Below, one piece after another: positions 8,701 to 28,483 of a stretch of DNA of 64,000 nucleotides. This DNA is from an uncultured Verrucomicrobiae bacterium (GTDB lineage Bacteria; Verrucomicrobiota; Verrucomicrobiia; Limisphaerales; UBA11358). Position 1 is the stretch's first letter, and each line of letters begins with the position of its first letter. The stretch spans positions 566,857 to 630,856 of the forward strand of contig CAWDIX010000002.1 of NCBI GenBank assembly GCA_963802515.1, read 5' to 3'. Below the pieces are notes generated by a model. It saw nothing but the letters and a program-made list of their open reading frames with translations. It had not been told where the DNA came from and made no database searches. Both the position numbers and the translations under genes were made by a program.

Positions 8701-9155
8701 ACTTTTGTGGTTTGCAGCCAGCGCGTTTCGTTGGTCCGTGGATTCACCGCCTTTTCTTCCCGATTCAGTGGCTGGCCTGATTCCATCACCGCACGTTCGT
8801 CATTGTAATACTGCCTGGCCAATTCCGCCGGGAAGATGTCGAGGTCCGTTTTGCCAATCACCTCGTCCTGGGTGGTTGCGCCCATGGCCCGCACGTGTGC
8901 CGGATTGTTGACCAAAAACCGGCTCTGCCGATCTTTGATAAAAATGCGATCGGGCAGGCTGTCAATCAGCGTCCGTAGTAAATCGTAATCCTGCCTGAGT
9001 CGCGCATTTTCCCGGGTAAGCCGTTGGTTCTCTTGCGCCAGCGACTCGCCTGGTTCCGCGGATTTCGAGCCATCCAAACACTTCACGGGACGGTCGTCCG
9101 GCGGAGCGGGGACGACTTCAGCCAATGGCGGTTCATTGTAACCAATTGTTTTCAT
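5709..9155 (-). CDS. multi-PAS sensor histidine kinase (six PAS-like modules, HisKA, HATPase)
   Basis: The module pattern (L)LxxL(I/L)DxxPDxIYxKD...GKTDFD(L/F)F...TSKxPLRDxxGKxxG...RDIT recurs six times. H-box: ASHDLQEPLRKI. ATPase: DNGIGF...GTGMGLAIARKI. Confidence 0.9.
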   Translation of the reverse strand: MKTIGYNEPPLAEVVPAPPDDRPVKCLDGSKSAEPGESLAQENQRLTRENARLRQDYDLLRTLIDSLPDRIFIKDRQSRFLVNNPAHVRAMGATTQDEVIGKTDLDIFPAELARQYYNDERAVMESGQPLNREEKAVNPRTNETRWLQTTKVPLRDKQQAVVGLMGISRDITELKRTEEAMAGAHLLLQAILDNVPDRIYFKDTQSRFLKLSKTLANRLGVKDPEEAVGKTDFDFNPREKAEEFYQDEQRIIRTGEALVNKTERQILPNGEIAWTSTTKVPLRDKAGKVAGIAGINRDITEQKRTEEALRQSRDELEKRVAERTAELSERNVALQQQIAERERAEEALVRAQQLLQAMLDNVPDRIYFKDSQSRFLKLSQALAKRIGVADPEQAVGKTDFDFFPPDKAQEFFQDEQKIIQTGQPLINKIEAQTQPGGEVTWASVTKVPLRDAAGKVIGVAGINRDITQQKHAEEALAQERRLLRTLIDNLPDAVYIKDTEGRKTLVNLADLKNVRCKTEAEAIGKSDFDLFSKDDAEKFWADDQKVIHGQPVLNREEKFLDEAGQEHWLLTSKLPLRDQNGKITGLVGIGRDITESKRVEAKLAYEKELFHTLLDTIPDDIYFKDCQSHLVRASRSKVESTFQTVRCSYRAAHPAADASEWPAHLAGVKAFGEWLIGKTDFDTYPEAHARAAYDDEQEIIRTGRPIVGKLQRVKLPDGTGVWWLSTKMPWRDRDGNIVGTFGVSKDVTAIKETEGALARERLLLRTLIDNLPDSIYAKDAACRKTLANPADLKNLRCKTEAEAIGKTDFDLFPKDIAEKFWADDQKVIQGYPVLKREEFFFDEKGRKHWLLTSKLPLRDQSGKITGLVGIGSDITARKRAEDALRNSEEKLRQFTAQLERSNRELQDFAYVASHDLQEPLRKIVVFGERLKDQGAGKLDKESCDYLERMQKAASRMQTLINDLLSFSRVTTKARPFVQVDLAEVAREVLADLEGRIEQVKGRVEVETLPVIDAEALQMRQLLQNLIGNALKFRRPEAPPVVKVAAEIIAGPTPEGGTGMAKKLCRLTVSDNGIGFDEKYLDRIFNVFQRLHSRNEYEGTGMGLAIARKIAVFHRGDITAKSKPGSGATFIVTLPVTHPKELNNNEQNE
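6540..8615. repeat. intragenic duplicated PAS-module DNA (two pairs, each about 340-360 bp)
   Basis: About 6540-6880 aligns with about 7383-7722, and about 7752-8105 aligns with about 8253-8610, at roughly 80 percent identity by eye. Example: gtccttgaaataaatccggtcgggaacgttgtccag versus gtccttgaaataaatccggtcggggacattgtccag. Confidence 0.8.
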
Positions 9156-9482
9156 ACCCAGACCAGAACCCGAGCACGCGAGACAACTCAGGATTAGTCA
9201 AACACAGCAGTTTGAATGCCTTTTCCAAGCCAATCTATTTGCTACTCGTTCGTCTTGGAAAACCAGCTCTTTGCCATTAAACGGGACATGACAAAGGGGT
9301 AACGATACAAGTCCGGATCGGCAGGACTATGCACAAAACCTGACGGCACAGGAGCTTTTGCCAACATTGCTGCCTTGTGCGGAAGTTGAAACATTTCCCG
9401 TCAACCGCTGAAAACTCCGGCGGACGGGAAGCGGACGGGGGCCTTGCGTGGCGGGTGCGTTGCCGTTAATGTCCCTTCGGCT

Positions 9483-9559
9483 GCGCCCGTAGCTCAGATG
9501 GATAGAGCATCTGCCTTCTAAGCAGAGGGTCCCGCGTTCGACTCGCGGCGGGCGCGCCA
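9483..9559 (+). tRNA. tRNA-Arg (anticodon TCT), CCA encoded
   Basis: Hand fold: acceptor GCGCCCG/CGGGCGC, D arm GCTC-AGATGGATA-GAGC, anticodon arm TCTGC-CTTCTAA-GCAGA, T arm CCGCG-TTCGACT-CGCGG, discriminator G, CCA. Confidence 0.93.
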
Positions 9560-9928
9560 CGGTTGACGCAAAAGCGTTTCCCTTTGCAGGAGGCAAAGCG
9601 ACAAGCCCAAACTTTTTCGGCTCTGAAAAACAAACCGGAGACTTCACTTTTTCCTGCAACCGCGACCTGTCGCCGCCGCCGGGGATGAATTGAGCAAAAA
9701 AATCCGTCGCGCTTGTCGCGCCGTAGCTTGGAGAAGGCGGACGCCGGCTGGCTTCACCCCATGGCACGCCGAGCCGCAGAAAATCTTTGGTGTTCATAAC
9801 AACCAATAACCGTCAGCCAATAATCATCCGGCCGATTTGGAATCCCAACGGGATTCCATCATTCAGCCCAAGGTTGCGCCACAGGCGCTACCTTGGGTAC
9901 CTTACGCACCGTTTGCCTCGGCGCGGCA

Positions 9929-9961
9929 GCCTTCGCTCACTCCAAAGTCGCGAGCGAAGGC
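9929..9961 (-). other. 10-bp-stem hairpin abutting the 3' CCA of the tRNA-like pair
   Basis: gccttcgctc (9929-9938) pairs with gagcgaaggc (9952-9961) across a 13-nt loop. No U-tract follows, so it may be a processing or termination structure, or a repeat-family member. Confidence 0.4.
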
Positions 9962-10036
9962 TGGTGCCCACGGTCGGAGTTGCACCGACACAGTGCGCGT
10001 TTTAAGTGCGCTGCCTCTGCATCGGGCTACGTGGGC
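9962..10036 (-). tRNA. non-canonical tRNA-like gene, anticodon TAA, class-I (short variable arm), GTGC T-loop, CCA encoded
   Basis: Hand fold of the reverse complement: GCCCACG-TA-GCC(C)-GATGCAG-(A)GGC-A-GCGCA-CTTAAAA-CGCGC-ACTGT-GTCGG-TGCAACT-CCGAC-CGTGGGC-A-CCA. All stems pair except one A.C in the anticodon stem. Confidence 0.5.
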
Positions 10037-10041
10037 GAAAT

Positions 10042-10119
10042 TGGTAGCGCGTGAAGGATTTGCACCTTCAACACCTTCCCGTTCTGAGCGGGACGCCTCT
10101 GCTATTGGGCTAACGCGCC
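10042..10119 (-). tRNA. non-canonical tRNA-like gene, anticodon CAG, class-I (7-nt variable region), GTGC T-loop, CCA encoded
   Basis: Hand fold of the reverse complement: GGCGCGT-TA-GCC(C)-AATAGCAG-(A)GGC-G-TCCCG-CTCAGAA-CGGGA-AGGTGTT-GAAGG-TGCAAAT-CCTTC-ACGCGCT-A-CCA. There is a G1.U72 wobble; all other stem pairs are Watson-Crick. Confidence 0.5.
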
Positions 10120-10266
10120 GATATACTGGCGCATCCGGCAGGACTCCCACCTGCAATTCGAGCAACTCGATCAAAGATTGAAAGGCATTAAGTTGCACTG
10201 TTTAATAAAGATCGTCATACTTCCGGCGTAGCAGCGGCGTTTTGTGATTAACATTCGACCTCATTC

Positions 10267-11286
10267 ATGGGCTTATCCAATGCGCCATCGGAGACCGGTT
10301 CCGATCGGGTTAAAGCGGAATTTCCTTCAGTTCCGCTTTCGTGGTTTTATTTGTGTTCCAGTGGTGAACTGAATCGCGGGCCAACGAGCGTGGAACTTTG
10401 CGGCCACACCTATGTCGGTTACCGAACCCGGTCTGGACGAGCGATTGTTTTATCGGGGCGGTGCTCGCATCTTGGCGCGCAACTGTGTAACGGAGCCGTG
10501 AAGGGCGAACGGCTGGTTTGTCCCTTGCATGGTTGGGAATATGGCCCGGACGGCGTCTGCGAACAAATTCCGGCGGCGGAAACGATCCCGGGTTTTGCCC
10601 GGCAAGCGAGTTATCCCGTTGAGGAGCGAGGTGGTCAGGTTTTTTTCTTCAATCGTCAGCCAGCCCGGTTTGCCCTGCCCTTTTTTGACGGATGGTCACC
10701 GGATCAGCTATTGTCCGCCAGGTCGTTTGAACTGATTGCCGAAACGCCCTGGTATTTCATTGGCGCGAACGGATTTGACATCCAGCATTTCCGGATGGCG
10801 CACGATCGAACGTTGATTGGCCAACCCGAGGTGAGTAACCCATCGCCTTTTGCCCGGCGGGTGGTGGCGCACTTTGAGGTTTCCGGTGATTCTTATCAGG
10901 ATCGACTGACTCGTTGGATTGCCGGGGCGCGAGTTACAATGGATATCACCGTGTGGTGCGGCGGTTTGATCCTGGTACGCGCTGAATTCCCGCGCACAAT
11001 GAGTTTTGGAATCTTCAATGTTCTGCCCATTGACGCCAACCGGACTCGTGGCCGGGTGATTGTCTGGGTGCAGCGCAGTAAAAATGCGCCCGGGCGCGCA
11101 TTTTTCGATCCGCTCAATGCCGCCATTCGCCGAATGTTCATTCGAACATTTCTGCGTTCAGACTTGCCGCGCATCGCCGGTTTGCGTTATCAACCCGGAA
11201 ATCTGATTGCCGCCGACGGAGTTATGGCGGAATATTTTGCGTGGCTGGAAAATGTTTCCAGACCACTACCCATGGAGAACACATGA
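10267..11286 (+). CDS. Rieske [2Fe-2S] non-heme iron oxygenase
   Basis: Rieske motif CSHLGAQL...CPLHGWEY. A downstream mononuclear-iron motif DIQHFRMAH fits D-x2-H-x4-H. Confidence 0.85.
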   Translation: MGLSNAPSETGSDRVKAEFPSVPLSWFYLCSSGELNRGPTSVELCGHTYVGYRTRSGRAIVLSGRCSHLGAQLCNGAVKGERLVCPLHGWEYGPDGVCEQIPAAETIPGFARQASYPVEERGGQVFFFNRQPARFALPFFDGWSPDQLLSARSFELIAETPWYFIGANGFDIQHFRMAHDRTLIGQPEVSNPSPFARRVVAHFEVSGDSYQDRLTRWIAGARVTMDITVWCGGLILVRAEFPRTMSFGIFNVLPIDANRTRGRVIVWVQRSKNAPGRAFFDPLNAAIRRMFIRTFLRSDLPRIAGLRYQPGNLIAADGVMAEYFAWLENVSRPLPMENT

Positions 11287-11894
11287 AAAAGCTTCTGGTC
11301 ATTATTGTTACGCTTGCCTCTTTTGCGCTCACAGCGGAGGCTCAAGTCAACCCACCGCCGATGGATACCGCCACCGAGCAAGCCATCACTAAATTGCGCG
11401 AAGGATTGGTGGACAGCTTCAATCACGGGGACATTGACCGGCTCCTGACTTACCTCGACACAAACACGGTTGTAACCTGGCAAAATGGAGAGGTTTGCGA
11501 AGGAGCCGGAGCAGTGAAGGCGTATTACGAACGCATGATGAAAGGGGAACATCCGGTGGTCAGCAAAGTCACCGCCGATCCAATAGTTCTCGGGCGTCAT
11601 TTCCAAGGAGACTGGGCGGTTTCGTGGGGAAATTTAAACGACCACTTTGTCTTGACCGACGGACGCGAATTGCCGTTGAACAGCCGGTTCACCGCGACCA
11701 TCGCGCGACGGGGTGACCGTTGGCTCGTGACGGCCTTTCATGTGTCGGTCAACGCTTTCGACAATCCGGTCCTGTCTTTGGCTGTAAAAAAGACATCTAT
11801 GTTTGCCAGCATCATCGGTCTGGTGGCCGGTTTTCTTACCGGTGTGATGGTAATGCGTTTGTTGCGGCGCCCCAAGGACAGCAGCAGAGCATGA
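11283..11894 (+). CDS. NTF2/SnoaL-like (DUF4440-like) protein with signal peptide and C-terminal TM helix
   Basis: The ATG at 11283 overlaps the Rieske stop (ATGA). Signal peptide: MKKLLVIIVTLASFALTAEA. NTF2-like core: ...DIDRLLTYLD...RRGDRWLVTAFHVS. The tail is hydrophobic: IIGLVAGFLTGVMVM. Confidence 0.65.
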   Translation: MKKLLVIIVTLASFALTAEAQVNPPPMDTATEQAITKLREGLVDSFNHGDIDRLLTYLDTNTVVTWQNGEVCEGAGAVKAYYERMMKGEHPVVSKVTADPIVLGRHFQGDWAVSWGNLNDHFVLTDGRELPLNSRFTATIARRGDRWLVTAFHVSVNAFDNPVLSLAVKKTSMFASIIGLVAGFLTGVMVMRLLRRPKDSSRA

Positions 11895-12913
11895 TCAGCC
11901 GGCCCGAAGTGATTTCCGCAGAAGACAAGGATTTGCTGGCACAGGCGGGGGCGTGGGAGCAATGTCCCGTTTTAGAAGATTGCACACCACTTAAACTGGC
12001 GGCGGTCGCGCGCAAACACGGGCTTGAATTCGCCACCGCCGTGCTTTACGACCGGGTCCTGCGTAAGGTGGCGCATCGGACGTTTTTTCAGGGGGTGCAA
12101 TCCGGCGACACCTGCGCGCCCCTTGCGCCAACACTGGTCGGCATCGTTCCTGGAGCCTTCTATTTGGAGCACAGAAACACCGGTGCGGACGGAGCGCGTC
12201 TGGCCTCCATCATCGAATCGATGAATTGTCCCGTCGAACGGGTGCCCGTTGAAAGCTTCGGCTCGTTGGGCAGAAATGCTTTGCGAATTGCGGATTGGCT
12301 CATGCAACACAAACAACAGCGAGTCGTATTGATCAGCCTGAGCAAGGGAAGCGCGGATATGAAGGTTGCGCTGGCGTTGCCCGACGCCATTGAACTTTTC
12401 GGCAATGTGGCTGCCTGGATCAGTTTGAGTGGATTGCCGCAAGGAACCCCGTTGGTAACCTGGCTTCGCCGCCAGCGGTTGCGGCAACCGGGTGTGCGCC
12501 TGTTGCTCTGGCTACGCGGCCAACGGTATTCAGTCGTGGAGGAGTTGCGGCCGGAATCCGATGGGCCGCTGGCAGCATGGCCGGTGCTGCCGCCGAACTT
12601 GCGGGTCATTCATATGGTCAGTTTTCCCCTGCGCCGGCACCTCGCACATCCCTGGGCGGCGCGCGCCTACGAGCGTGTCGCCCCTTGGGGGCCTAACGAC
12701 GGTGGCGGTTTCCTTTTGGCAGATGTGACTCGTCTTCCCGGCACGGTATTTCCAGTGTGGGGGGCTGACCATTATCTTCAGCCCGCATGGGATTCAACGG
12801 AACTCTTGCGCAGGGTGCTGGTTGAATCAATGGCGCCGCATGCCGAGTTATGCCAGGCTAACCAATCCGCAGCCCAGCCGATCACACCTCCCGCCAACAG
12901 ATCGAGCGCGTAG
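11891..12913 (+). CDS. alpha/beta-hydrolase-like protein (putative esterase/lipase)
   Basis: The ATG at 11891 overlaps the previous stop (ATGA). Candidate nucleophile elbow VVLISLSKGS; later NDGGG and GADHY are possible Asp/His triad members. The assignment is tentative. Confidence 0.55.
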   Translation: MISRPEVISAEDKDLLAQAGAWEQCPVLEDCTPLKLAAVARKHGLEFATAVLYDRVLRKVAHRTFFQGVQSGDTCAPLAPTLVGIVPGAFYLEHRNTGADGARLASIIESMNCPVERVPVESFGSLGRNALRIADWLMQHKQQRVVLISLSKGSADMKVALALPDAIELFGNVAAWISLSGLPQGTPLVTWLRRQRLRQPGVRLLLWLRGQRYSVVEELRPESDGPLAAWPVLPPNLRVIHMVSFPLRRHLAHPWAARAYERVAPWGPNDGGGFLLADVTRLPGTVFPVWGADHYLQPAWDSTELLRRVLVESMAPHAELCQANQSAAQPITPPANRSSA

Positions 12914-13485
12914 TGCTGTTTCGTGGCGAGGGTGGCAAAAAGAATTAGAATCGCCCAAACCAAGAGGAGGGCCGACATCCCGGCGTTCATCTGCCGCCCC
13001 AATAAACGCCGGCACAGGAGGAGCGTGTAAATGAGAAACCCCGCATGTAACGATGGGAAAGCGTTCAGCGGACCATCCACCCGGGTTATGAAAATCAAGG
13101 TGGCGTTTTCTCCCAGGTTTGCCGGCCGAGGCGACGCAACTGGAAAAAGGGCGAAGATCACAAAGCTCAAACCCGAGAGCACCACAAAACCGGCTGTATA
13201 ACGGCGCAACTCCGCCCGCGAGGCCATTAACCAGGGGATGATTCCTGTGATCAGGAAATTGGATTCATATATCCATGCCCAGGGATATGGCCGGAATCCC
13301 GCCCATCGGTCCAGGCACGTCATTGGCAGAGTATGAATCGGAAGCAGCGCGTGTCGTGAAAGAAGAAGATAACCACCCCAAAACCAAACACTCAAAACCA
13401 CAGTCAACACCAGTTTAACCGGCCAGAGCGTCTGCAGGCGCTGCAAACCGCGGACGCCACGTTCAACGGATGACGCGTCCGGCAT
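12778..13485 (-). CDS. PAP2-superfamily membrane protein (sphingomyelin-synthase/PAP2_C-like)
   Basis: Polytopic protein with FPSLHAGF and KQHYALDLLAGGVIGW motifs. The ATG at 13485 is preferred over the track start at 13524. The 3' end overlaps the convergent gene by 136 nt. Confidence 0.7.
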   Translation of the reverse strand: MPDASSVERGVRGLQRLQTLWPVKLVLTVVLSVWFWGGYLLLSRHALLPIHTLPMTCLDRWAGFRPYPWAWIYESNFLITGIIPWLMASRAELRRYTAGFVVLSGLSFVIFALFPVASPRPANLGENATLIFITRVDGPLNAFPSLHAGFLIYTLLLCRRLLGRQMNAGMSALLLVWAILILFATLATKQHYALDLLAGGVIGWAADWLAWHNSACGAIDSTSTLRKSSVESHAG

Positions 13486-14425
13486 ATTGATTCTCGATGT
13501 GCTCCTTTGCCTTACGCGGGCCACGCCACATTTTGAAATAAGACCAGAGCAAGAAACCGCGCTTTTCGGTTTGGGTCGCGTTGCCGAGCACCGGCAAATG
13601 AATCCACGGCACGGTGGGATGTTCGTGATGCACCCGGTGCCAGTTGTGATTCAGCCACAGACGATCAATGGGTTCCCACAATCTGAGATTGCGTGCGCCG
13701 CGCGTCACATGCCGTTCGGTGCCGTAATGATGCACGTATTGCATGGCCGACCACGTCAGACCGAAACCGAAATACATCACCGCGTAGTTCAGCAGCGGAA
13801 TGTGAAAGAAGCAGATAATCAACGTGTGCAGGCCGATTACCGCGAGGCATTCTAGTTGAATCAGCCGACGATAGGATGGGTTGAGAGATTCCATGAATGC
13901 ATGGGACGGCCGGTCGAAATCCCAGTACTTTTTATTGGCAGCAAACGGGAAAAACAGAAACACAACGTTGCCCAAAACCACCACGATCCAATAACCGCCA
14001 GTCAGAATTCCGTAAAGGACCAAATATCGCCATAAGCGGTGGTCTCCATCAAAATAGAGGTCGAAGGCTTCGTCATCCGAACGGTTGCGAAAATGATGTC
14101 CCAGATGCCCTTGCCGGATCAGATGGAAGGGTGCCGGGAAAAATAAGGCCATTAATGCGCCAGCCGCGTCGTTCCAGCGCCGGCTCGGGAAGAGCATGGC
14201 GTGTTCCGCCTCGTGAATGATTGAATACACGGAATTCATCACGATGCCGAAGACGAGCGCCAGACAGGCCAGACTCCAGGGCTGGTGCATGCGTGCGGCA
14301 GCGTAACAGCAGAGAGCAATGGCGGTGAGCTGTGCGGCCATGAACACCAGGTTCATCCCCACGGGAATGTCCATGGGGCTGGACGTTGGCTCAATGACCG
14401 GCGCACTTGGAAGTCTGGTCGGCAC
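13463..14425 (-). CDS. membrane fatty-acid-desaturase-family protein
   Basis: Three His boxes (HEAEH, HLGHHFRN, HNWHRVHHEH) in a polytopic protein. Confidence 0.85.
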   Translation of the reverse strand: MPTRLPSAPVIEPTSSPMDIPVGMNLVFMAAQLTAIALCCYAAARMHQPWSLACLALVFGIVMNSVYSIIHEAEHAMLFPSRRWNDAAGALMALFFPAPFHLIRQGHLGHHFRNRSDDEAFDLYFDGDHRLWRYLVLYGILTGGYWIVVVLGNVVFLFFPFAANKKYWDFDRPSHAFMESLNPSYRRLIQLECLAVIGLHTLIICFFHIPLLNYAVMYFGFGLTWSAMQYVHHYGTERHVTRGARNLRLWEPIDRLWLNHNWHRVHHEHPTVPWIHLPVLGNATQTEKRGFLLWSYFKMWRGPRKAKEHIENQYAGRVIR

Positions 14426-14599
14426 AACGCCGAATTATGGCAAATGACGTCCGACCCCACAATTTCAAAAATTCGGGGCCACATTAAAAAAATCGTGGAC
14501 CCATTGAAATTTTCAACCCGACCCCGCCGCCATTCCGCTTGAAGCTGCGGGAGTTGAGGTCTATATCTTGTTTGCAGAAACAGGCAGCGACAGAAATCC

Positions 14600-15988
14600 A
14601 TGTCCGACCGAAAAATTAAAATCGTTTTGGTTTCTCCGAAAGGGCCGCTCTACCGGCATCGCGGGGGTATCTGGAAGAAGTCACTGCGCTATCAACCGTT
14701 GACCTTGACGACGCTCGCGGCACTCGTGCCGCCGGAGCTCGCGGTTGATTTGGAGCTTTTCGATGAGGGCATCACCGATGTGCCGGTGGATTTGGAAGCG
14801 GACCTCGTCGGACTGACCGTCATCACCGGCACGGCCAGGCGCGCGTATGAGTTGGCCGATCTTTTTCGGCAACGCGGCATCACGGTCGTTCTCGGCGGCC
14901 CGCACGTGACCTTGATTCCCGAAGATGCGCAACCGCACGCGAACGCCATCGTGGTGGGGTATGCGGAGGATTCCTGGCCGCAACTGATACGAGATTTTGC
15001 GAACGGTGAATTACAGCCGCGCTATGACCAGGCGCCGGGCTTGGATCTGGCCAATCGTCCATTTGCGCGGCGCGAACTCCTGCCGGGCAGTCGCTATCTG
15101 ACCAACAACGTTTTTGAGGCCACGCGCGGTTGTATTCACAACTGCGATTTTTGTGTCGTCCCAACCGCCTGGGGGCGCAAGCCATATCTAAAACCGGTGG
15201 CCGATGTCGTGGCTGACATTCGTCAGCACGGCGCTCGCAAGCTCATATTCGTTGACTTAAACATCATCGCCGATCTTGAATATGCTCGGCAGTTGTTTCT
15301 CGCGCTGGTTCCCTTGCGGGTGCAGTGGTATGGGCTGGCCACGGTGCTGCTCGCCGATGATTTGGAACTGCTCAAACTGGCCGCGCGCAGCGGTTGCAAA
15401 GGTTTGCTGATGGGCTTGGAATCCATCTCGCAGCAAAACTTGCGACAGAATCACAAGGGCTTCAACTCCCCGGAAAACTTTGTTCGTGTTGTTGAGCGCC
15501 TGCACGAGCACGGCATCGCGTTGCAAGGCTGCTTCGTATTCGGCCTGGATCAGGATGAACCCGATGTCTTTCTGAAAACCGCTGAATTCGCGGTCGCCGC
15601 CAGGATTGATTTGCCGCGCTATGCGGTCGTCACGCCGTTTCCGAACACCGGGCTTTACAAACGTCTCGAAGCTGAAGGCCGGATTCTCACGAAGAACTGG
15701 GAGCTGTACGACGGACAGCATGTCGTTTTTAAGCCGGCGAAAATGAGCATCGAAGAACTGCAAACAGGAATCGAAAACGCGTGGAAATTCACCTACAGCC
15801 TGTGCTCGATTGTCAAACGCATTCGCCATTCGCCGGCCCCCTGGCCCGTCAAGCTCGGCACGAATCTCGGATACCGGTTTTACGCGCACAACCTGGGCCG
15901 TTTTTACAACTGCGACTGGATCATCGGCCGGGCAAAAGCAAATCCCGTGAATTTCCAACCCGCCCAGCCATCGGTGGAGGCGGTTTGA
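14600..15988 (+). CDS. B12-binding-domain radical SAM protein (COG1032-type, DUF4070-like tail)
   Basis: N-terminal Rossmann-like segment: KIVLVSP...DLVGLTVITGTA...VVLGGPHVT. Radical SAM motif: RGCIHNCDFCVV. C-terminal: LYDGQHVVFKPAKMS. Confidence 0.9.
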   Translation: MSDRKIKIVLVSPKGPLYRHRGGIWKKSLRYQPLTLTTLAALVPPELAVDLELFDEGITDVPVDLEADLVGLTVITGTARRAYELADLFRQRGITVVLGGPHVTLIPEDAQPHANAIVVGYAEDSWPQLIRDFANGELQPRYDQAPGLDLANRPFARRELLPGSRYLTNNVFEATRGCIHNCDFCVVPTAWGRKPYLKPVADVVADIRQHGARKLIFVDLNIIADLEYARQLFLALVPLRVQWYGLATVLLADDLELLKLAARSGCKGLLMGLESISQQNLRQNHKGFNSPENFVRVVERLHEHGIALQGCFVFGLDQDEPDVFLKTAEFAVAARIDLPRYAVVTPFPNTGLYKRLEAEGRILTKNWELYDGQHVVFKPAKMSIEELQTGIENAWKFTYSLCSIVKRIRHSPAPWPVKLGTNLGYRFYAHNLGRFYNCDWIIGRAKANPVNFQPAQPSVEAV

Positions 15989-15994
15989 AAAGTC

Positions 15995-17350
15995 ATGCGC
16001 CTCACCCTTGTCCATCCCTGTGTTGGCCGGAAGCCGGGACAAAAATACATTCGCACGTGGCAAATGGAAGCGTTGCCCGCCGCCACCCTCGCCGGGCTGA
16101 CGCCGAGCGATGTCGAAGTGCGGTTCTATGACGACCGCTTGGAACAAATTCCGTTTGACGAACCGACCGATCTGGTCGCCATCAGCGTCGAAACCTATAC
16201 GGCGAAGCGCGCTTACCAGATTGCCACGGAATTTCGCAAACGCCGCGTGCCCGTGGTCATGGGCGGTTTTCATGCAACACTTTGCCCGGACGAAGTTGCG
16301 CTGTACGCTGAATCTGTTGTTTGCGGTGAGGCCGAATTGCTCTGGCCTCGGGTAATTGATGACGCGCGGCATGGGCGATTGGAGAAGTTTTATCGTCAGT
16401 CCGCCAGGCCTTCGCTGGCCGGATTAAAACCCGACCGGTCCATTTTTCGAGGCAAAAGCTATCTGCCCATCGGGTTGGTCGAGGCCGGACGCGGGTGCCA
16501 TTTCAAATGCGACTTCTGCGCCGTGCAAACCGTCTTCAACGCCACACAAACCCGCCGGCCTGTTGACAAAATCATCGCGGAAATCGGGCCGCTGAAACAC
16601 ACGCGGAAACTTTTCTTTTTCGTAGATGACAACATCACATCGAATCTCGAACAGGCGAAGGAATTCTTCCGCGCCCTGATTCCGCTAAAAGTTCGGTGGG
16701 TCAGCCAGTCCTCCATCAACGCGGCCCACGACGAGGAATTTCTGGATTTACTCAAGCGCAGCGGCTGCCAGGGCGTCCTTATCGGCTTTGAGAGCCTGAA
16801 CCAGGCAAATCTCAAGGACATGAACAAGGCCTTCAACACCATGTGCGGCGGATTCGAAAAGGCTCTGGCGAACCTTCATCGCCATCGCATTCGCGTCTAT
16901 GGCACGTTCATTTTCGGCTACGACCGTGATACGCCGGAAATATTTGCCCGGACCGTTGCCTTTGCCAAGGAACACGCACTTTACATCGCAGCCTTCAATC
17001 ATCTCACGCCGTTTCCCGGTACGCCGCTGTACGCCCGACTTCAAGCCGAAGGCCGTCTGCTCTACGAGCGATGGTGGCTGGACAACCGGTACAGCTACAA
17101 TCGCATTCCATTTCAGCCGCGCGGTATGACGCCTGATGCACTCCAGCAGAACTGCCTGGCCTCGCGTCGGGAATTTTATTCATGGCGCAGCATTGCCAGT
17201 CGCAGTCTGGCGCCGGTGAACCGGAGCGACTGGTTTATGTGGCGAAATTTTTACACGATCAACGCGCTTCATCGAAATGATGTTAGCCTGCGCGATCACT
17301 ACCCGCTCGGAGACGAATCATGGCAAGGACCATTCTTGAACGCGAACTGA
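15995..17350 (+). CDS. B12-binding-domain radical SAM protein (paralogue of the preceding gene)
   Basis: Same architecture as the preceding gene: DLVAISVETYTA...VVMGGFHAT, then RGCHFKCDFCAV. It starts 7 nt after the previous stop. Confidence 0.9.
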   Translation: MRLTLVHPCVGRKPGQKYIRTWQMEALPAATLAGLTPSDVEVRFYDDRLEQIPFDEPTDLVAISVETYTAKRAYQIATEFRKRRVPVVMGGFHATLCPDEVALYAESVVCGEAELLWPRVIDDARHGRLEKFYRQSARPSLAGLKPDRSIFRGKSYLPIGLVEAGRGCHFKCDFCAVQTVFNATQTRRPVDKIIAEIGPLKHTRKLFFFVDDNITSNLEQAKEFFRALIPLKVRWVSQSSINAAHDEEFLDLLKRSGCQGVLIGFESLNQANLKDMNKAFNTMCGGFEKALANLHRHRIRVYGTFIFGYDRDTPEIFARTVAFAKEHALYIAAFNHLTPFPGTPLYARLQAEGRLLYERWWLDNRYSYNRIPFQPRGMTPDALQQNCLASRREFYSWRSIASRSLAPVNRSDWFMWRNFYTINALHRNDVSLRDHYPLGDESWQGPFLNAN

Positions 17351-18453
17351 CGGTTGCCCGTTCCGGTGACACCTCTTTCAGCGTCGCCAACGAAGGCGAC
17401 GACCCTGATATTCGCCGCCTGCTGCGCGAAAACCCGATGCCCGGCAAAACCTCGATTTCCCTTGAGCGCGAGCCGGACTTTTTTGCCGACGCCGGTTTGC
17501 CGGATGAAACCAAACAAACGATTGTTGCCCGCAGCCGGGGACAGGTAATCGGCATGGGCAGTTGCACATTTCGCCGGCGGTTTGTGAACGGTGAGCCTCG
17601 GCGTGTGGGTTATCTGGGAGGGTTGCGGCTTGGTAAATCCCACGCCGGGCGTTTCGACTTTTTGCGGCGCGGTTACGGGTTTTTTCACGAACTCCAGGCC
17701 GATGCGCCCGCGGATTTTTATTTTACGAGCATCGCCGCCGATAATGAACCGGCACGACATTTTCTGGAACGCGGTTTGCGAGGAATGCCCCGCTACGAAT
17801 TCATTGGCGAATTTGTGACCTTGCTTTTGCCAACCATAGGCGCGGCGCGTTGGGATTTGGCAACCCGGCAACCAAATTGGGAGCGGCCCAAGCTGGCTGT
17901 AAAAGTAAACGAATTCAATCGGGATTATCAATTCGCTCCGTGCTGGTCGGCTGATGAACTGGCCGCGCTCGAATCACTGGGCTTGCGGACCGGGGATTTT
18001 CTTGTCAAGGAGCAGGAAGGAAGAATCGCGGCTTGCGCCGCGCTGTGGGACCAACGTTCGTTTAAGCAAACCGTTGTTCGTGACTATGCCCCGGCGTTAA
18101 AACGGGCACGAACACTGGTTAATTTTGCATCCAAGCTGGCTGGAAAGCCAATTTTGCCAGCCATCGGAGCGACACTTGCCTGCGCCACGGTTTCACATCT
18201 GGTAGTTGGCCGTGAAGCGTCAGTTGCGCTGGCCGAATGTCTGGCCGCGCTTCAAAGCCGGGCAGCTAAACGGAACGTAGAATTTATTTCGCTCGGCTTT
18301 GCTGCGAATGATCCGCGTCTCGCCACGGTCCGCGCGCGTTTCAAAAGTCGGGAGTATCGCAGCCGTCTTTATGTCGTGCGCTGGCCGGATGTGGGCGGCG
18401 CCTTAAATCAACTCGATGGCCGTGTATTGCAGCCGGAGCTTGCCCTGCTATGA
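17320..18453 (+). CDS. two-domain GNAT-fold-like protein, function unknown
   Basis: The ATG at 17320 overlaps the radical SAM gene by 31 nt. The segments IVARSRGQVIGMGSCTF...VGYLGGLRLGKSHAGRFDFLRRGYG resemble GNAT strand-helix motif A. At 377 aa it is compatible with a tandem acyltransferase fold. The call is tentative. Confidence 0.55.
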   Translation: MARTILERELTVARSGDTSFSVANEGDDPDIRRLLRENPMPGKTSISLEREPDFFADAGLPDETKQTIVARSRGQVIGMGSCTFRRRFVNGEPRRVGYLGGLRLGKSHAGRFDFLRRGYGFFHELQADAPADFYFTSIAADNEPARHFLERGLRGMPRYEFIGEFVTLLLPTIGAARWDLATRQPNWERPKLAVKVNEFNRDYQFAPCWSADELAALESLGLRTGDFLVKEQEGRIAACAALWDQRSFKQTVVRDYAPALKRARTLVNFASKLAGKPILPAIGATLACATVSHLVVGREASVALAECLAALQSRAAKRNVEFISLGFAANDPRLATVRARFKSREYRSRLYVVRWPDVGGALNQLDGRVLQPELALL

Positions 18454-19193
18454 ACCTGCCCATGCCAATTTACTCCGGGACCATCCCGCGCGGCGACCTC
18501 ACGCCAGCGCAGGTCGGAGAAATGTTCGAGTTGTTTGCCGGGCATTTCGACGGCGTGACGAAAGCACAATTCACACGCGACCTGGCAGAAAAGCACCGGG
18601 TCATTTTACTTTTGCGCGGCAATCGGCTCGTGGGCTTCTCAACCCTGTTGGCTTACACCGCCACGTTCGAGGGTGAATCGCTCAATGTGATTTATTCCGG
18701 CGACACCATCGTTGCGCCGGAGGCGTGGGGCACCATGGCGTTACCACGGGCATGGATTGCCGCCGTCAACGAGTGGCGTGAGGAATTGCCGGAAGGCCGC
18801 TGCTTCTGGCTGCTGCTCACGTCGGGTTTCCGAACGTACCGGTTCCTGCCGGTGTTCTGGCGCGAATTCTTTCCACGCTACGACAAACCATTGCCGATTC
18901 AAACGCGGCGCCTGCTGAACCAATTGTCGCAGGAGCGTTTCGGTTCGCAATTCGATTTGTCGGCAGGCATCGTCAGATTCAGTTCGCCCCAGCGACTGCG
19001 TTCGAATTTGCGGGATATTCCAAACGGGCGGGAGCGCGATTCGCACATCGCTTTTTTCCTCGCAACCAATCCCGGTCACGTCCGGGGCGATGAATTGGTA
19101 TGCCTTACCGAACTTTGTGACGAAAATTTGACGCGCGCCGGCAGGCGGATGATTGAACCCCGATACCATGAAACTCTCTGCGGTCATTGCTAA
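18450..19193 (+). CDS. GNAT-like acyltransferase-fold protein, function unknown
   Basis: ATGA overlap with the previous stop. LLRGNRLVGFSTL...GDTIVAPEAWGTMALPRAWI resembles GNAT motif A. The call is tentative. Confidence 0.55.
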   Translation: MNLPMPIYSGTIPRGDLTPAQVGEMFELFAGHFDGVTKAQFTRDLAEKHRVILLLRGNRLVGFSTLLAYTATFEGESLNVIYSGDTIVAPEAWGTMALPRAWIAAVNEWREELPEGRCFWLLLTSGFRTYRFLPVFWREFFPRYDKPLPIQTRRLLNQLSQERFGSQFDLSAGIVRFSSPQRLRSNLRDIPNGRERDSHIAFFLATNPGHVRGDELVCLTELCDENLTRAGRRMIEPRYHETLCGHC

Positions 19194-20793
19194 CTCGTTG
19201 TGGGCGGCCTCTACCGTTCCGGCGTTGATGCGGTTTCGCCGGGCATTGAACCGGCCGGCTGATACGCAATTGCAATTGCTGCGCGATTATCTGGCGCGAA
19301 ATGCCGACTCCGCTTACGGCGAGGCTCATGGCTTCGGTAGTATCCATTCCTACGACGATTTTGCCCGGTGCATTCCGCTTACGGATTACGATGACCTCGC
19401 GCCATGGATTGAGCGCGTCCGCAAGGGGGAGCAAAATGTGCTGACCAGCGATGTGGTAACGCGTTTGATTCCGACCAGTGGCTCGACCGGCGCACGAAAA
19501 CTCATTCCCTTCACCACAAGTTTGCAGCGTGAATTCAACCGCGCCATCGGGCCTTGGGTTGCGGATATTTACCGGCAGCATCCATTCGCGATGGCAGGTC
19601 CGGCATATTGGTCAATTTCGCCGGCCCTCCAGTCCCGGAGTGCCGCATCGTCGGCCCTGCCCATTGGCTTTGAAGATGACGCAGCCTATGTCGGCGGCCG
19701 AAGCAAACGACTCGTGGAGTCGGTGATGGCCGTGCCCTCCGAACTGCAGTTGGTTGCCGACATCGATCAATTTCGGTATCTGACCTTGCTTTGCCTGCTG
19801 CGACAACGCGGCTTGTGCCTGATTTCCGTCTGGCATCCATCGTTCTGGTCGCTCTTGCTGGATGCTCTGCCGGATTGCTGGGAATATTTATTGGGTGACA
19901 TTCAGAAAGGCAACTGTCGATTTTCGGATTCGTTGCCAGTAACGGTTTTGCGCGCATTGAAACTGCGCCCGATGCCAAAACGTGCCGGGCAGTTGGAAAA
20001 TGCTGGCCCATCTAAACCCGACTCCATTTGGCCTTCATTAAAAATCATCAGTTGTTGGGGGGACGGAAATGCCGAATTTGCAATCACTGACCTGCAACGT
20101 CGCTTTCCAAACACACCGGTTCAGCGCAAAGGCTTGATCGCCACCGAAGCTATTGTGTCCATTCCTTTTCTCGATTCGCGACCGCTCGCCGTGTGTTCTC
20201 ACTTTTTTGAATTCATTGATAGCACAGGTGGGATTCACCTCGCTCACGAATTGAAAAAGGACGAAACGTATGAAATCGCCGTAACCACAGGCGGAGGGCT
20301 TTGGCGCTACCGTTTGCGCGACGAGGTTCAAGTGACAGGATTCTCAGGACAAACGCCGTCGCTGCGGTTCCTTGGCCGAAAGGGACAGGTTTCGGATCGT
20401 TTTGGGGAGAAACTTTCTGAGATTTTCGTTGTGAAAGTGGTCCAGGAGCTTTTGTTAAATGTGTCCGCTCCGCCTTGTTTCGTATTGCTTGCACCCGACG
20501 AAAATCATTCAGGGTGTTGTTATACCCTCTATGTTGAGGGCGAGGTTCAACGAGACCTTGCGGCGCCTTTGGATGATTTATTGATGAGGAACCCGCATTA
20601 CGCCTGGTGCAGAAAGCTCGGCCAGTTGCAACCGCCACGGCTCTTTCGCATGAAGGCTGGCGGCAACAAGACTTTCATTGCCCACGAAATCTCCGAGGGC
20701 AAACGAGCCGGAGATATCAAACCATGTGCGCTTTCTCTTCAGGCCGGATGGTCACAGCGTTTCGCAGGAGATTATATTCAACCACCGTCATAG
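19168..20793 (+). CDS. GH3-family adenylate-forming amido synthetase-like protein
   Basis: LIPTSGSTGARKLIPFT (the ANL/GH3 P-loop-like motif), with length and N-terminal pattern typical of bacterial GH3 proteins. The track start at 19153 is a TTG; the ATG at 19168 is preferred. Confidence 0.8.
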   Translation: MKLSAVIANSLWAASTVPALMRFRRALNRPADTQLQLLRDYLARNADSAYGEAHGFGSIHSYDDFARCIPLTDYDDLAPWIERVRKGEQNVLTSDVVTRLIPTSGSTGARKLIPFTTSLQREFNRAIGPWVADIYRQHPFAMAGPAYWSISPALQSRSAASSALPIGFEDDAAYVGGRSKRLVESVMAVPSELQLVADIDQFRYLTLLCLLRQRGLCLISVWHPSFWSLLLDALPDCWEYLLGDIQKGNCRFSDSLPVTVLRALKLRPMPKRAGQLENAGPSKPDSIWPSLKIISCWGDGNAEFAITDLQRRFPNTPVQRKGLIATEAIVSIPFLDSRPLAVCSHFFEFIDSTGGIHLAHELKKDETYEIAVTTGGGLWRYRLRDEVQVTGFSGQTPSLRFLGRKGQVSDRFGEKLSEIFVVKVVQELLLNVSAPPCFVLLAPDENHSGCCYTLYVEGEVQRDLAAPLDDLLMRNPHYAWCRKLGQLQPPRLFRMKAGGNKTFIAHEISEGKRAGDIKPCALSLQAGWSQRFAGDYIQPPS

Positions 20794-21062
20794 GCCGCAG
20801 CCTGCGACCACATCGGCGACGCTGAAGTGCTGCAAATCCTGAACAATTTACCAACGCCAAAAGCGTCTCAAAAGCGCCCACTCCCTCACGCCGCGCGGAG
20901 CTGCACGTTCCACATCTGTTGACTTCGCCGGGAAACATGCATATTTCCCGGTGAAATTGACCTCGTGACCGTCTTCAACCCAGAGGATCACGCGTTCGAT
21001 TCGCGCCCGGCGCCTCACTCTTCCATTTACGATTGGCGATTGGCGATTTACGATTGTCCGTC

Positions 21063-21950
21063 ATGCTGACACTGGAACAACTGGCTGAACTGCTGGCGAA
21101 AAATCGCGCCGCCGCGACCGCGCGCGTGAAAGAATTTTCCATCGGCGACCGATCGTTCGCTTTTAATGCGCAGCCGGCCATTATGGGTGTCGTCAATCTG
21201 TCGCCCGATTCCTGGTACCGCGAAAGCGTCTGCCTGACAGTCGAAGCGGCGGTCCAGCGCGGCAGGGTTTTGATCGCGCAAGGCGCGGACATCGTGGACG
21301 TCGGCGCGGAGTCCACCCTCGCCCACGCCGCGCGCGTGGAGGATGCCGCTCAAAACAGCAAACTGGTTCCCGTCATCAGGGAATTGCGCCAAGGCAGCAT
21401 CCTGGTCTCGGTCGAATCCTATTCATTCGCCGTCACCCGCGCGTGTTTTGAGGCGGGCGCGAACATCCTGAATCTCACGGGCACGGACGGCAGCGATGAA
21501 TTGTATCGCCTCGTGGCCGCCCATGACGCGGCGGTGATTATTTGTTACGTTCAGGGCAAAAACGTCCGCGAAGTCGGCGATTTCGATTTCAGCGCCGATC
21601 CGATCGAAATGATGCGGGAATATTTTGCGCGACAAATTGAGATTGCGCAGCGCCACGGCGTGGAGAGAATTGTTCTGGATCCCGGCCTCGGCTTTTACTA
21701 CCGCAACTTGCAGGACAGCGGCATCCGCGTGCGGCATCAAATGACCGTTTTCCTGAACACGTTCCGTCTGCGGACACTCGGTTTCCCGATCTGCCATGCC
21801 CTGCCCCATGCGTTTGAGTTTTTCCGCGATGAAGTCCGTTGCGCCGAGCCGTTTTTTGCCGTGCTGGCCGCGCTGGGCAAAACGGACCTGTTCCGCACCC
21901 ACGAAGTTCCGCGCATCAAAGCCGTGCTGGACACGATGAAGGCGTTTTAA
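21063..21950 (+). CDS. pterin-binding (dihydropteroate synthase-like) domain protein
   Basis: IMGVVNLSPDSWYRES...AQGADIVDVGAESTL...LDPGLGF matches the DHPS/pterin-binding barrel pattern. The track start at 21033 is a TTG inside a short tandem repeat; the ATG at 21063 is preferred. Confidence 0.7.
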   Translation: MLTLEQLAELLAKNRAAATARVKEFSIGDRSFAFNAQPAIMGVVNLSPDSWYRESVCLTVEAAVQRGRVLIAQGADIVDVGAESTLAHAARVEDAAQNSKLVPVIRELRQGSILVSVESYSFAVTRACFEAGANILNLTGTDGSDELYRLVAAHDAAVIICYVQGKNVREVGDFDFSADPIEMMREYFARQIEIAQRHGVERIVLDPGLGFYYRNLQDSGIRVRHQMTVFLNTFRLRTLGFPICHALPHAFEFFRDEVRCAEPFFAVLAALGKTDLFRTHEVPRIKAVLDTMKAF

Positions 21951-21952
21951 TC

Positions 21953-22023
21953 CGTAGCGGCGTCTCCGCAGAGCACCGCACTCGAAAAAGAATTCAGCGT
22001 GGCGCTGTCGAACCGCCGCTACG
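21953..22023. repeat. palindromic element, family P2 (CGTAGCGGCG ... CGCCGCTACG)
   Basis: The arms cgtagcggcgtctccgcagagcaccgc and gtggcgctgtcgaaccgccgctacg flank an AT-rich centre. The element is related to the one at 52274-52347. Its right arm encodes the last codons and the stop of the minus-strand methyltransferase gene. Confidence 0.7.
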
Positions 22024-26610: not shown

Positions 26611-28483
26611 CTAATGGGCGGCTGGCACGGGTGAAATTTTTGGCGCAGTCACGGGTACGTCCGGTTCGTTTTGCGGTGTAAAATCCGTGTCGTGGCCGGG
26701 CACGCTGTATTCGTAAGGACCGCGCCAGATGTGCGGCGGCTCGGCAAAATTGCCATGCGGCGGCGGCGTGGGCGTCTGCCATTCAAGCGTGGTCGAGTGC
26801 CACGGATTCGTGCCGACCTTTTCGCCATGCTTGATGCTCCAGAATAAATTGAGGATGAACGGAATTTGCGCGATGCCCAACGCCACCGCCGCCCAGAGAA
26901 TCCAGGTGTGCAGTTCCATGATGGAACCGGGCAGCGTGTCAATCGCCCCCGGCACGCGCGCGGCGGAATAATTCGCGCCGCCATCAGCCATGCGCCGCAG
27001 CATGCCTTTCATGCCCTGCGCGAACATCGGCATGAAGACGAGATTCATGAACACGAACGAGCACCAGAAATGCACGCGGCCCCAGAACTCGTTCATCTTC
27101 CGCCCGGTCATTTTCGGAAACCAATAATAAATTCCGGCGAACAATCCAAAAATCGTGCCCGGCGCGACGACATAGTGGAAGTGCGCGATGACATAATAGG
27201 TGTCGTGCAGGTAAACGTCGCTCGCGTTGAACCCGAGCGGCAGACCGGTCAGCCCGCCGATGCCGAACATGGGCAGGAACGCCAGCGCAAAGAGCATCGG
27301 CGTGTTGAACCGGATCGAACCGCCCCACAACGAAATGAAGAGGCACGTCAGAATGATGACCGACGGTATCGAAATGATCATCGTCGTCGCCTGGAAGAAC
27401 GCGGAAATCTTCGTGCCCATGCCCGTCAGATACATGTGGTGCGCCCAGACGATGAACGACAGGAAACCGATCGCCAGCACCGAATAGACGAGCGATTTGT
27501 AACCCCAGATCGGTTTGCGCGTGTTGTTGGCGATGATTTCGCAGACGGTGCCCATCGCCGGCAGGATCAGGACATAGACTTCCGGGTGGCCGAGGAACCA
27601 GAACAAATGCTGCCACAACAACGGACTGCCGCCGCCGCTGATATGCGCCAGTTTGCCGCCCACCGCCAGACCCGTCGGCAGGAAGAAACTCGTGTGCGCC
27701 AGATTGTCCATCAACTGCATGATGCCGGCGGCTTCCAGCGGTGGAAACGCCAGCAACAGCAGGAACGCCGTCACAAATTGCGCCCAGACGAAAAACGGCA
27801 TCCGCATCCACGTCATGCCCGGGGCGCGCAGTTGGATGATGGTGGCGATGAAATTCACCGCACCGAGCAGTGACGACGTGATGAGCAGCACCATGCCGAT
27901 AATCCAGAACGCCTGCCCGTGCGTCGGAATTGTCGTGGCCAGCGGCGAATAGGAGGTCCAGCCCGCCTGCGCGGCGCCGCCCGGGAATGAAGAAACTCAC
28001 CAGCATGACGACGCCACCCAGAAAATATGCCTGATAACTTGCCATGTTGACGCGCGGAAACGCCATGTCCGGCGCGCCAATCATCAGCGGCACGACATAG
28101 TTGCCAAACGCGGCGAACGCCAGCGGCACGATCGCCAGAAAGACCATGATCGTCCCGTGCATCGCGCCGAAGGAATTATAAAGGTCGGGTGAAATCGCGC
28201 CTCCCGCAGCGACCTGGCCAAGCACTTTTTCGAGCAACGGGCCGATGAACGGCACCGGCTGCCCGGGATGCGCAATCTGCCAGCGCATCAGCAGCATCAG
28301 GAAAAATCCAAACAGCATGAAACACAGCGCCGTGAAGCCGTATTGAATGCCGATGATTTTGTGGTCGGTGGAAAAGACATAGCCGCGCCAGAAGCCGGGG
28401 TCGTGATGGGCATGTTCCGCATCGTGTCCGTGCTGCTCCCCAGGCTCACGGTACGGAGGAAATTGTTCAACCGTTGCGTCCAT
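26611..28483 (-). pseudogene. coxA: cytochrome c oxidase subunit I interrupted by a 1-nt frameshift near 27976-27990 (pseudogene or sequence error)
   Basis: Track ORF 26984..28483 carries the N-terminus up to ...MLVSFFIPG. The other frame continues GGAAQAGWTSYSPLATT...MVLLITSSLLGAVNFIATI... through to the stop at 26611. The two frames join in the run cccgggcggcgcc. Confidence 0.85.

Follow-up and report, generated by a model that had tools for sequence, protein, structure and literature searches.

Two short-arm leucine tRNA genes in a Verrucomicrobial genome as the probable relic of a transferred tRNA array

Two neighbouring tRNA-Leu genes with short variable loops lie on the minus strand of the 64,000-nucleotide stretch of an uncultured Verrucomicrobiae genome analysed here (the window). 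It seems likely, with a probability of about 0.8, that this pair belongs to a relic, approximately 530 bp long (minus strand of window 9630-10156), of a long tRNA array (L-array) with RNA-repair genes that had spread by horizontal transfer. What would survive of the array island are the last 30 nt of a tRNA-Arg(UCG), the intact Leu(CAG) and Leu(UAA) genes, an array-type palindrome, and the leader and first ~56 codons of rtcB. Since the match to one of the array loci found in our searches (L073; such loci are cited by L numbers) starts inside the tRNA-Arg(UCG) and ends after the tRNA-Leu(UAA), and a stub of rtcB follows, the pair can be read as an orphaned fragment of such an island. L-arrays have been described as horizontally spread sets of supernumerary tRNAs with HNH and rtcB genes enriched nearby, and the Verrucomicrobia are among their host phyla (PMC8421152). 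The features concerned are the following:

10042-10119, minus strand: class-I tRNA-Leu(CAG), called by ARAGORN; 50.1 bits on the Rfam tRNA model (RF00005), 76.2 bits on the family covariance model R1
9962-10036, minus strand: class-I tRNA-Leu(UAA), called by ARAGORN; 44.3 bits on RF00005, 81.6 bits on R1
10127-10156, minus strand: 3' remnant of an array-type tRNA-Arg(UCG) (end of the variable loop, T arm, 3' strand of the acceptor, CCA), matching the 3' terminal part of tRNA-Arg(TCG) genes in arrays such as L007 and, by BLAST, L073
9929-9961, no strand assigned: palindromic hairpin abutting the CCA of tRNA-Leu(UAA), found by folding; perfect 10-bp palindrome, single copy in the window
9798-9898, minus strand: conserved leader of array-linked rtcB genes; contains the perfect hairpins ACCCAAGGU...ACCUUGGGC and GGAAUCCCGUUGGGAUUCC and shares 97% identity with L048 over 59 nt
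9630-9797, minus strand: N-terminal stub of the gene for an array-linked RtcB RNA ligase, ~56 codons in length and with 10 codons inserted; 54% identical (BLASTP, E = 1e-17) to a protein of L025
9483-9559, plus strand: ordinary housekeeping-type tRNA-Arg(UCU), called by ARAGORN; 66.2 bits on the Rfam model, canonical GG D-loop and UUCGA T-loop (TTCGACT)

The two leucine genes and the boundaries of the fragment

An earlier note on this DNA, made from the sequence alone, had folded two cloverleaf tRNA-like genes by hand at the positions given above. ARAGORN and the Rfam covariance model both call them there, with scores well over the RF00005 gathering score of 29 bits, and with a spacer of 5 nt between the two genes; the folds are true cloverleaf tRNAs and no product of chance. 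The other traits then reported hold as well: both have an acceptor stem of 7 bp, the discriminator A73 and an encoded CCA, textbook anticodon loops (CUCAGAA in the CAG copy, CUUAAAA in the UAA copy), variable loops of 7 nt (AGGUGUU) and 5 nt respectively, the latter being the norm of the family to which they belong, and T-loops (UGCAAAU and UGCAACU) in which position 55 is G and not U. Leucine anticodons in a standard 7-nt loop, combined with a variable loop this short, place both genes in class I. The CAG copy has the D-loop CAAUAGCAGA and a G1.U72 pair. The UAA copy has an A31.C39 mismatch, which is a family trait, and carries G14: positions 13 to 15 read C-A-A in 201 of the 215 family members and C-G-A in this copy only.

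Some readings of the earlier note have to be revised. It held that bacterial tRNA-Leu always has a long arm, but short-arm cases occur in Streptomyces (PMC6614811), in mycobacteria (PMC6582537) and in the Anabaena operon discussed below. The 3-bp D stem that it counted as a deviation is the normal design of tRNA-Leu. It had also argued that two sequences that differ in every stem and keep the same oddities look selected; the oddities are indeed selected family traits and no marks of decay, but the stems do not all differ, as the D stem (GCC...GGC) is identical in the two genes. Finally, it proposed a swapped kissing pair between G18/C19 and G55/C56. According to the family alignment the 'GC' of the D-loop corresponds to G19-C20, preceded by A18 in the CAG copy and by nothing in the UAA copy, and the G19:C56 pair is kept and not swapped.

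The sequence from 10156 to 9959 (minus strand) is 92% identical over 200 nt to L073 by BLAST. The match opens inside the tRNA-Arg(TCG) of that locus (L073 1386-1462), 30 nt before the end of the gene, and closes just past the tRNA-Leu(TAA), where L073 itself goes on with a Leu(CAA). The 3' end of Arg(TCG), Leu(CAG) and Leu(TAA) follow one another here in the order that recurs in dense same-strand arrays. A 5'-truncated piece consisting of T arm, acceptor and CCA had been noticed before; it extends over 10127-10156 and can be identified as what is left, at the 3' side, of a tRNA-Arg(UCG) from an array. On this alignment, the array fragment was broken here at its 5' side. The hairpin next to the last CCA is likewise real, and related palindromes (GCCUUCGC...GCGAAGGC) stand in the spacers of other arrays (L005, L041, L042, L072). 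Downstream of it, the leader matches a sequence that, in L048, sits upstream of rtcB-like open reading frames (ORFs), and the stub that follows is matched in tblastn searches by proteins of L025, L051 and L048, the first of which is an RtcB according to Pfam (PF01139, E = 3e-26). The similarity of the translated stub ends after ~56 codons; by its sequence, this is a pseudogene fragment, the remainder of the gene being missing. The RNA-repair trace of the window is limited to this leader and 56-codon stub, and an HNH gene is absent from it. The relic lies ~70 bp from the housekeeping tRNA-Arg(UCU), and an att-like direct repeat of the 3' end of that gene, sought as a sign of integrase-mediated insertion, was not found in 9000-22000.

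The rtcB leader together with the first ~30 codons (MNTKDFLRLGVPLGEATRRATDFVAQFILGGG) occurs in three tandem copies downstream of the L048 array (L048:368-1198, minus strand) and in one copy in the window (9671-9898). This tandem unit could be a module prone to recombination, or else a small ORF under regulation.

A family of short-arm leucine tRNAs in mobile arrays

The features common to both Leu genes in the D arm and T-loop were turned into a search pattern (TAGCCCNNT..GCAGAGGC..GGTGCAA), which was run against a one-genome-per-species collection of 185,579 species genomes and against viral contigs. It matched 78 genomic stretches, nearly all from metagenome-assembled genomes or isolates of Verrucomicrobiota with a few bins assigned to other phyla, and 7 viral contigs, a sporadic distribution that resembles the outcome of transfer. 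Among the pattern matches listed, all lie within short-arm tRNA-Leu genes. ARAGORN finds 215 tRNA-Leu genes of at most 80 nt in the matched loci; they cover all five leucine anticodons and no other anticodon. Most of them stand in arrays densely packed on one strand, with as many as 21 tRNAs in 8 kb and with the recurrent order Cys-Thr(CGT)-Arg(TCG)-Leu(CAG)-Leu(TAA)-Leu(CAA)-Ile(TAT)-Arg(CCT)-Gly-Val-Glu-Thr-Leu(GAG)-Gln, and some genomes hold several copies (L033/L056, L075/L077). Long-arm tRNA-Leu is represented in the 78 genomic loci by two genes, both in a Planctomycetota bin. The neighbourhood of the arrays is enriched in HNH and rtcB genes, as in known L-arrays: across the 85 loci, HNH is found in 44, Ro60/TROVE in 26 and RtcB in 22. 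In 16 array loci, the 150 Rfam matches listed are all to tRNA, with 84 lower-scoring matches outside that list.

The short-arm genes share a 5-nt variable loop (206/215), A73 (212/215) and, less uniformly, an encoded CCA (158/215). In an alignment of 150 of these sequences A14 is kept in 148, A15:U48 in 146 and U54:A58 in all. The D arm of the family (UAGCCCAAUUAGCAGAGGC) presumably also agrees with the D arm of E. coli tRNA-Leu at every base. According to the introduction of a study on Streptomyces, A73, U8:A14, A15:U48, U54:A58 and the 3-bp D stem are the identity elements of the E. coli leucyl-tRNA synthetase (LeuRS) (PMC6614811). Because these LeuRS features and the 3-bp D stem are kept, the family is best read as made up of descendants of normal bacterial tRNA-Leu that have lost the long arm. 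The LeuRS identity set (A73, U8:A14, A15:U48, U54:A58) is complete in the CAG copy of the window, whereas the UAA copy has G14 in place of the A14 of nearly all aligned members.

Selection on the cloverleaf of the family is strongly supported by the alignment. Standard pairs fill 97.8% of its paired cells and both sides have changed in 20 of the 21 pairs, the T-stem pairs among them varying with compensation; none of 500 shuffles did as well, and in controls with slid partners the paired fraction fell to 35-43%. On the R1 covariance model the members score about 71-93 bits and other tRNAs at most 66. Covariation extends to the elbow of the molecule. As the tertiary pair 19:56, 137 sequences have G:C and 11 have C:G, and position 18 changes together with position 55: A is found with G in 74 sequences, a gap with G in 54 and G with U in 20. 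When all the tRNAs parsed from the loci are considered, 605 of 769 have G55, and the D-loop GG is found in 152 of the 160 tRNAs with U55 versus 18 of the 605 with G55. In the bacterial arrays G55 extends beyond leucine, to 408 of 499 non-Leu tRNAs and to nearly every amino-acid specificity, while in several viral contigs G55 is confined to the class-I Leu genes. The Verrucomicrobial arrays, and some Leu genes of viral contigs, carry an alternative, covarying elbow. The canonical one is present in stand-alone tRNAs of the window and of two array loci, namely the Arg(UCU) of the window and, on the strand opposite to the array, a Gly(CCC) in L016 and L033; since the tRNA-Arg(UCU) has a GG D-loop and a UUCGA T-loop, the host of the window pair also has canonical-elbow tRNAs. 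We found no account of the G55/A18 elbow in the literature searched, a search that was incomplete, and the variant may be undescribed; the linkage of arrays to Ro60 is possibly undescribed as well.

The array tRNAs show several further peculiarities. Of 20 tRNA-Ile(UAU) genes, 17 measure 89-92 nt and fold with a long variable arm (L009:713-804, L017:1507-1598, L014:2185-2275), and so do some tRNA-Thr(CGU/UGU) genes (86-88 nt, nine genes; L005:7164-7251, L007:1632-1717), so that the classes are swapped in Verrucomicrobial arrays: Leu belongs to class I, Ile and Thr to class II. Suppressor-type tRNAs are also present, namely a CUA (amber) tRNA in a viral contig (L085:6967-7039) and a 72-nt UCA tRNA that ARAGORN calls SeC (L011:5458-5529). 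An ARAGORN 'tRNA-Phe(aaa)' in L050, considered as an example of recoding, is a mis-registered Leu(UAA) and was rejected. Genes for Ro60 (TROVE and vWA domains) lie within or beside the arrays at L007:2352-4517, L073:1935-3626, L076:4354-6084 and in 23 other loci.

The pair had one weak BLAST match each in the cultured-phage and plasmid collections. The former is a tRNA-Leu of the ordinary, long-arm type. The latter, in Arthrobacter sp. StoSoilB13 (1.35-Mb replicon; L086:5002-5076), is a stand-alone class-I tRNA-Leu(UAA) with the D arm of the family and a canonical GG/UUC elbow. As it reaches 83.2 bits on R1, the short-arm Leu scaffold also exists outside arrays in Actinobacteria.

The interest of these observations lies in the array family, with its alternative elbow, its class-swapped Ile(UAU) and Thr and its linkage to Ro60 and RtcB, rather than in the window locus. 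A bolder scenario, which we consider unlikely, would make the Verrucomicrobial arrays a structurally parallel tRNA set in which the universal G18.Psi55 contact has been systematically replaced by G55 with A18 or with nothing, with Leu in class I and long-armed Ile(UAU) and Thr. Together with Ro60, RtcB and HNH, it would form a translation-rescue island whose tRNAs either escape a tRNA toxin directed at the T-loop or elbow or dispense with the enzymes that modify Psi55, m5U54 and Gm18, and the Leu genes of the window would have been retained and be working. If it is true that the elbow variant reflects toxin escape or independence from modification, it would provide a testable handle on the spare tRNA sets of bacteria and phages.

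Known relatives and the state of the window copies

Class-I leucine tRNAs in mobile arrays are a known but little-noticed feature. The trn operon of Anabaena/Nostoc sp. PCC 7120, located on plasmid delta (Santamaria-Gomez et al. 2021, PMC8421152), resembles the arrays described here in being a dense, horizontally transferred one-strand array with an adjoining HNH gene and a functional link to rtcB. It occupies the last 6 kb of the plasmid sequence, in which bases 1-50000 have no tRNAs. Its four tRNA-Leu genes are all short-arm genes with the D arm of the family (GUAGCCCAAUUGGCAGAGGC), and three of them score 65.6-72 bits on R1; nevertheless, their elbow is the canonical GG/UUC, unlike the G55 elbow of the window pair, and the Anabaena array is complete, plasmid-borne and inducible, whereas the window holds a two-gene fragment with truncated flanks. 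Translational stress induces the Anabaena array, and of the 26 tRNAs that it encodes 23 carry an amino acid in vivo (PMC8421152). Since only three genes of the operon went undetected and four encode short-arm Leu, at least one short-arm tRNA-Leu is charged in Anabaena.

The transferred clusters of Mycobacterium mucogenicum and M. phocaicum (Behra et al. 2019, PMC6582537) contain HNH, Ile(TAT), Arg(TCG) and a short-loop tRNA-Leu beside the normal long-arm isoacceptor. The cluster tRNAs are called 'structurally different' from the housekeeping ones, and northern blots show expression of Ile(TAT), Arg(TCG) and Ile(GAT), Leu not being among those probed (PMC6582537). The host is an actinobacterium and, in the text consulted, a linkage to Ro60 or RtcB is not reported. 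Counting these clusters, three phyla (Cyanobacteria, Actinobacteria and Verrucomicrobiota) have long tRNA arrays that contain short-arm tRNA-Leu. A different case is the type I tRNA-Leu(CAA) of S. coelicolor, which is leucylated by the single LeuRS of its host (Fan et al. 2019, PMC6614811). Its 5-nt variable loop, ACAGC, is close to the ACAGU/CCAGU of the Leu family, but it is a stand-alone housekeeping isoacceptor outside any array, with canonical G18G19 and U55C56. Deleting G18/G19 or U55/C56 barely affects its charging; U8:A14 is an identity element, while A73 was reported not to be one (PMC6614811).

If the pair descends from such an array, the 3-bp D stem, U8:A14, A15:U48, U54:A58 and A73 would have been kept in a scaffold that lost the long arm, and in the Verrucomicrobial lineage the elbow contact G18.U55 would have given way to G55 combined with A18 or with no residue at position 18, the 19:56 pair remaining. 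Were the genes transcribed, the tRNAs would be released by RNase P and 3' processing, loaded with leucine by the LeuRS of the host and would serve the ribosome as additional tRNAs for CUG and UUA/UUG codons, as for the array tRNAs of Anabaena. Several points weigh against this reading. Each window copy has an unusual change at a conserved position, so that either gene, or both, may have lost function in part or altogether: the A14 to G change of the UAA copy is unique in the family, and the 7-nt variable loop of the CAG copy is found in only 2 of 215 members. In the S. coelicolor type I tRNA-Leu an A14U substitution cuts leucylation to 14%, and five nucleotides are the shortest variable loop with efficient charging (PMC6614811). 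Both copies score on R1 ~5 bits under their closest orthologues in L073. The upstream array is lost from the window, presumably along with its promoter. Charging of class-I tRNA-Leu by a Verrucomicrobial LeuRS is presumed by analogy, and other bacterial LeuRS enzymes that were tested did not charge it (PMC6614811). The source genome probably has normal long-arm tRNA-Leu genes elsewhere, to which the pair would be supernumerary; the canonical-elbow tRNA-Arg(UCU) of the window lends this indirect support. On balance, the odds that the pair is currently functional are slightly short of even.

It is in fact conceivable, and we keep it as a tentative alternative, that both Leu genes are dead relics, untranscribed or unchargeable, which persist only because the fragment is young. 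The two flanks are truncation scars (the Arg(UCG) and rtcB stubs), the A14 to G change and the 2-nt insertion in the variable loop touch conserved positions that bear on leucylation, and a scan of the minus strand over 9200-10500 found no sigma-70-like promoter, although the scan is a weak one and promoters may look different in Verrucomicrobia. The rtcB leader, which is presumably of no use, has stayed nearly identical to that of L048, so the intactness of the tRNA genes may reflect youth alone. Yet all 21 stem pairs are intact in both genes, the sole stem difference from the L073 orthologues is a compensated one in the D stem (U:A to C:G), the R1 scores are well within the family range, and the encoded CCA and tRNA-sized spacers have been kept. 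The A31.C39 and G1.U72 oppositions were rejected as signs of decay, both being present in the orthologues. At the other extreme, the short-arm G55 genes could be the normal and only leucine tRNAs of a Verrucomicrobial lineage, and the pair part of a housekeeping set. The coverage of all five leucine anticodons and the near absence of long-arm tRNA-Leu from the 78 genomic loci, where its only two genes belong to a Planctomycetota bin, would fit this idea. It nevertheless appears very improbable, as a phylum-wide trait should presumably have given far more than 78 stretches among 185,579 species genomes, some genomes have multiple copies, and the genes are linked to HNH homing endonucleases and present in viral contigs. 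Furthermore, the window copy is a truncated fragment with two anticodons only, the stand-alone tRNAs of the window, L016 and L033 have canonical elbows, and such arrays are called supernumerary in the literature.

The adjacent biosynthetic cluster and other proposed roles

The earlier note had suggested that the pair, which it placed about 150 bp from a biosynthetic neighbourhood encoding two GNAT proteins, could be dedicated aminoacyl donors, recoding tRNAs or a tRNA-derived repeat. The distance holds for the first gene of the neighbouring cluster, that of a Rieske protein, which starts 148 bp from the pair, but not for the two GNAT genes, which lie 7-9 kb off at 17320-19193. As non-ribosomal donors for Fem- or GNAT-type transferases of that cluster, the tRNAs would parallel the tRNA-Gly species of the Staphylococcus cell wall, which their altered T-loop and missing D-loop GG presumably recall. 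The nearby cluster, which contains a GH3 adenylating enzyme besides the two GNAT-like proteins, would speak for such a role. The likeness is at the level of sequence only (GUGC for GT-Psi-C, loss of the D-loop GG): the Fem donors of Staphylococcus are glycine tRNAs by anticodon and identity, tied to FemXAB both in the genome and in function, whereas the window pair has leucine anticodons and, apart from G14 in the UAA copy, the leucine identity set, without a Fem-type gene. Pfam finds no FemAB-type domain in the cluster and only weak GNAT matches (E = 1e-4 and 2e-6), of the ORFs of at least 150 amino acids (aa) in the 78 genomic loci none matches window 10267-21000, and the neighbours of the family in the 85 loci are other tRNA genes, HNH, Ro60 and RtcB, so that no association with a FemXAB-type or other aminoacyl-tRNA-dependent transferase is seen there. 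The elbow change, for its part, is common to array tRNAs of nearly all specificities, and the boundaries of the fragment show that the juxtaposition arose by truncation. Of all the readings weighed here, a donor role is the hardest to credit.

A reassignment of CUG and UUA/UUG, by tRNAs loaded with an amino acid other than leucine, is scarcely more believable. The class-I architecture is atypical for leucine, A37 and not G37 follows the CAG anticodon, and tRNAs of swapped class, the long-arm Ile(UAU) and Thr, stand in these arrays too. Nevertheless, a single scaffold that carries all five leucine anticodons and no others fits an anticodon-blind synthetase such as the bacterial LeuRS, and the identity set (A73, U8:A14, A15:U48, 3-bp D stem) is conserved in the family, two facts that argue for an ordinary leucine identity. 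The S. coelicolor type I tRNA-Leu with its similar ACAGC loop is leucylated, and the array tRNAs of Anabaena are aminoacylated in vivo and were tested on polysomes. As for a dispersed tRNA-derived repeat, it was rejected: R1 finds two copies only in the 64 kb, the next match scoring 12.7 bits, with no degenerate copies scattered through the window, and 20 of the 21 pairs are compensated across the family. The array origin that we favor implies that the pair is debris of a mobile tRNA array, which should not be tied to the neighbouring biosynthetic genes, and that its location beside a Rieske/radical-SAM/GNAT cluster would be accidental.

The cluster itself (10267-20793, plus strand) encodes the Rieske protein, a SnoaL/DUF4440 protein, a 397-aa protein of unknown type, two B12-binding radical SAM (S-adenosylmethionine) enzymes, the two GNAT-like proteins and the GH3-family adenylating enzyme, while PAP2 and fatty-acid desaturase genes lie inside it on the minus strand. 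It looks like a cluster for lipid or small-molecule tailoring that is unrelated to the tRNAs. Farther downstream, the gene of cytochrome oxidase subunit I (minus strand, 26611-28483), whose product clusters at 90% identity or more with a protein of a Verrucomicrobiota metagenome-assembled genome, appears to be split into two overlapping ORFs, 26611-27894 (427 aa) and 26984-28483 (499 aa), compared with 594-629 aa in its cluster mates; this could be due to a frameshift, a sequencing error or programmed frameshifting.

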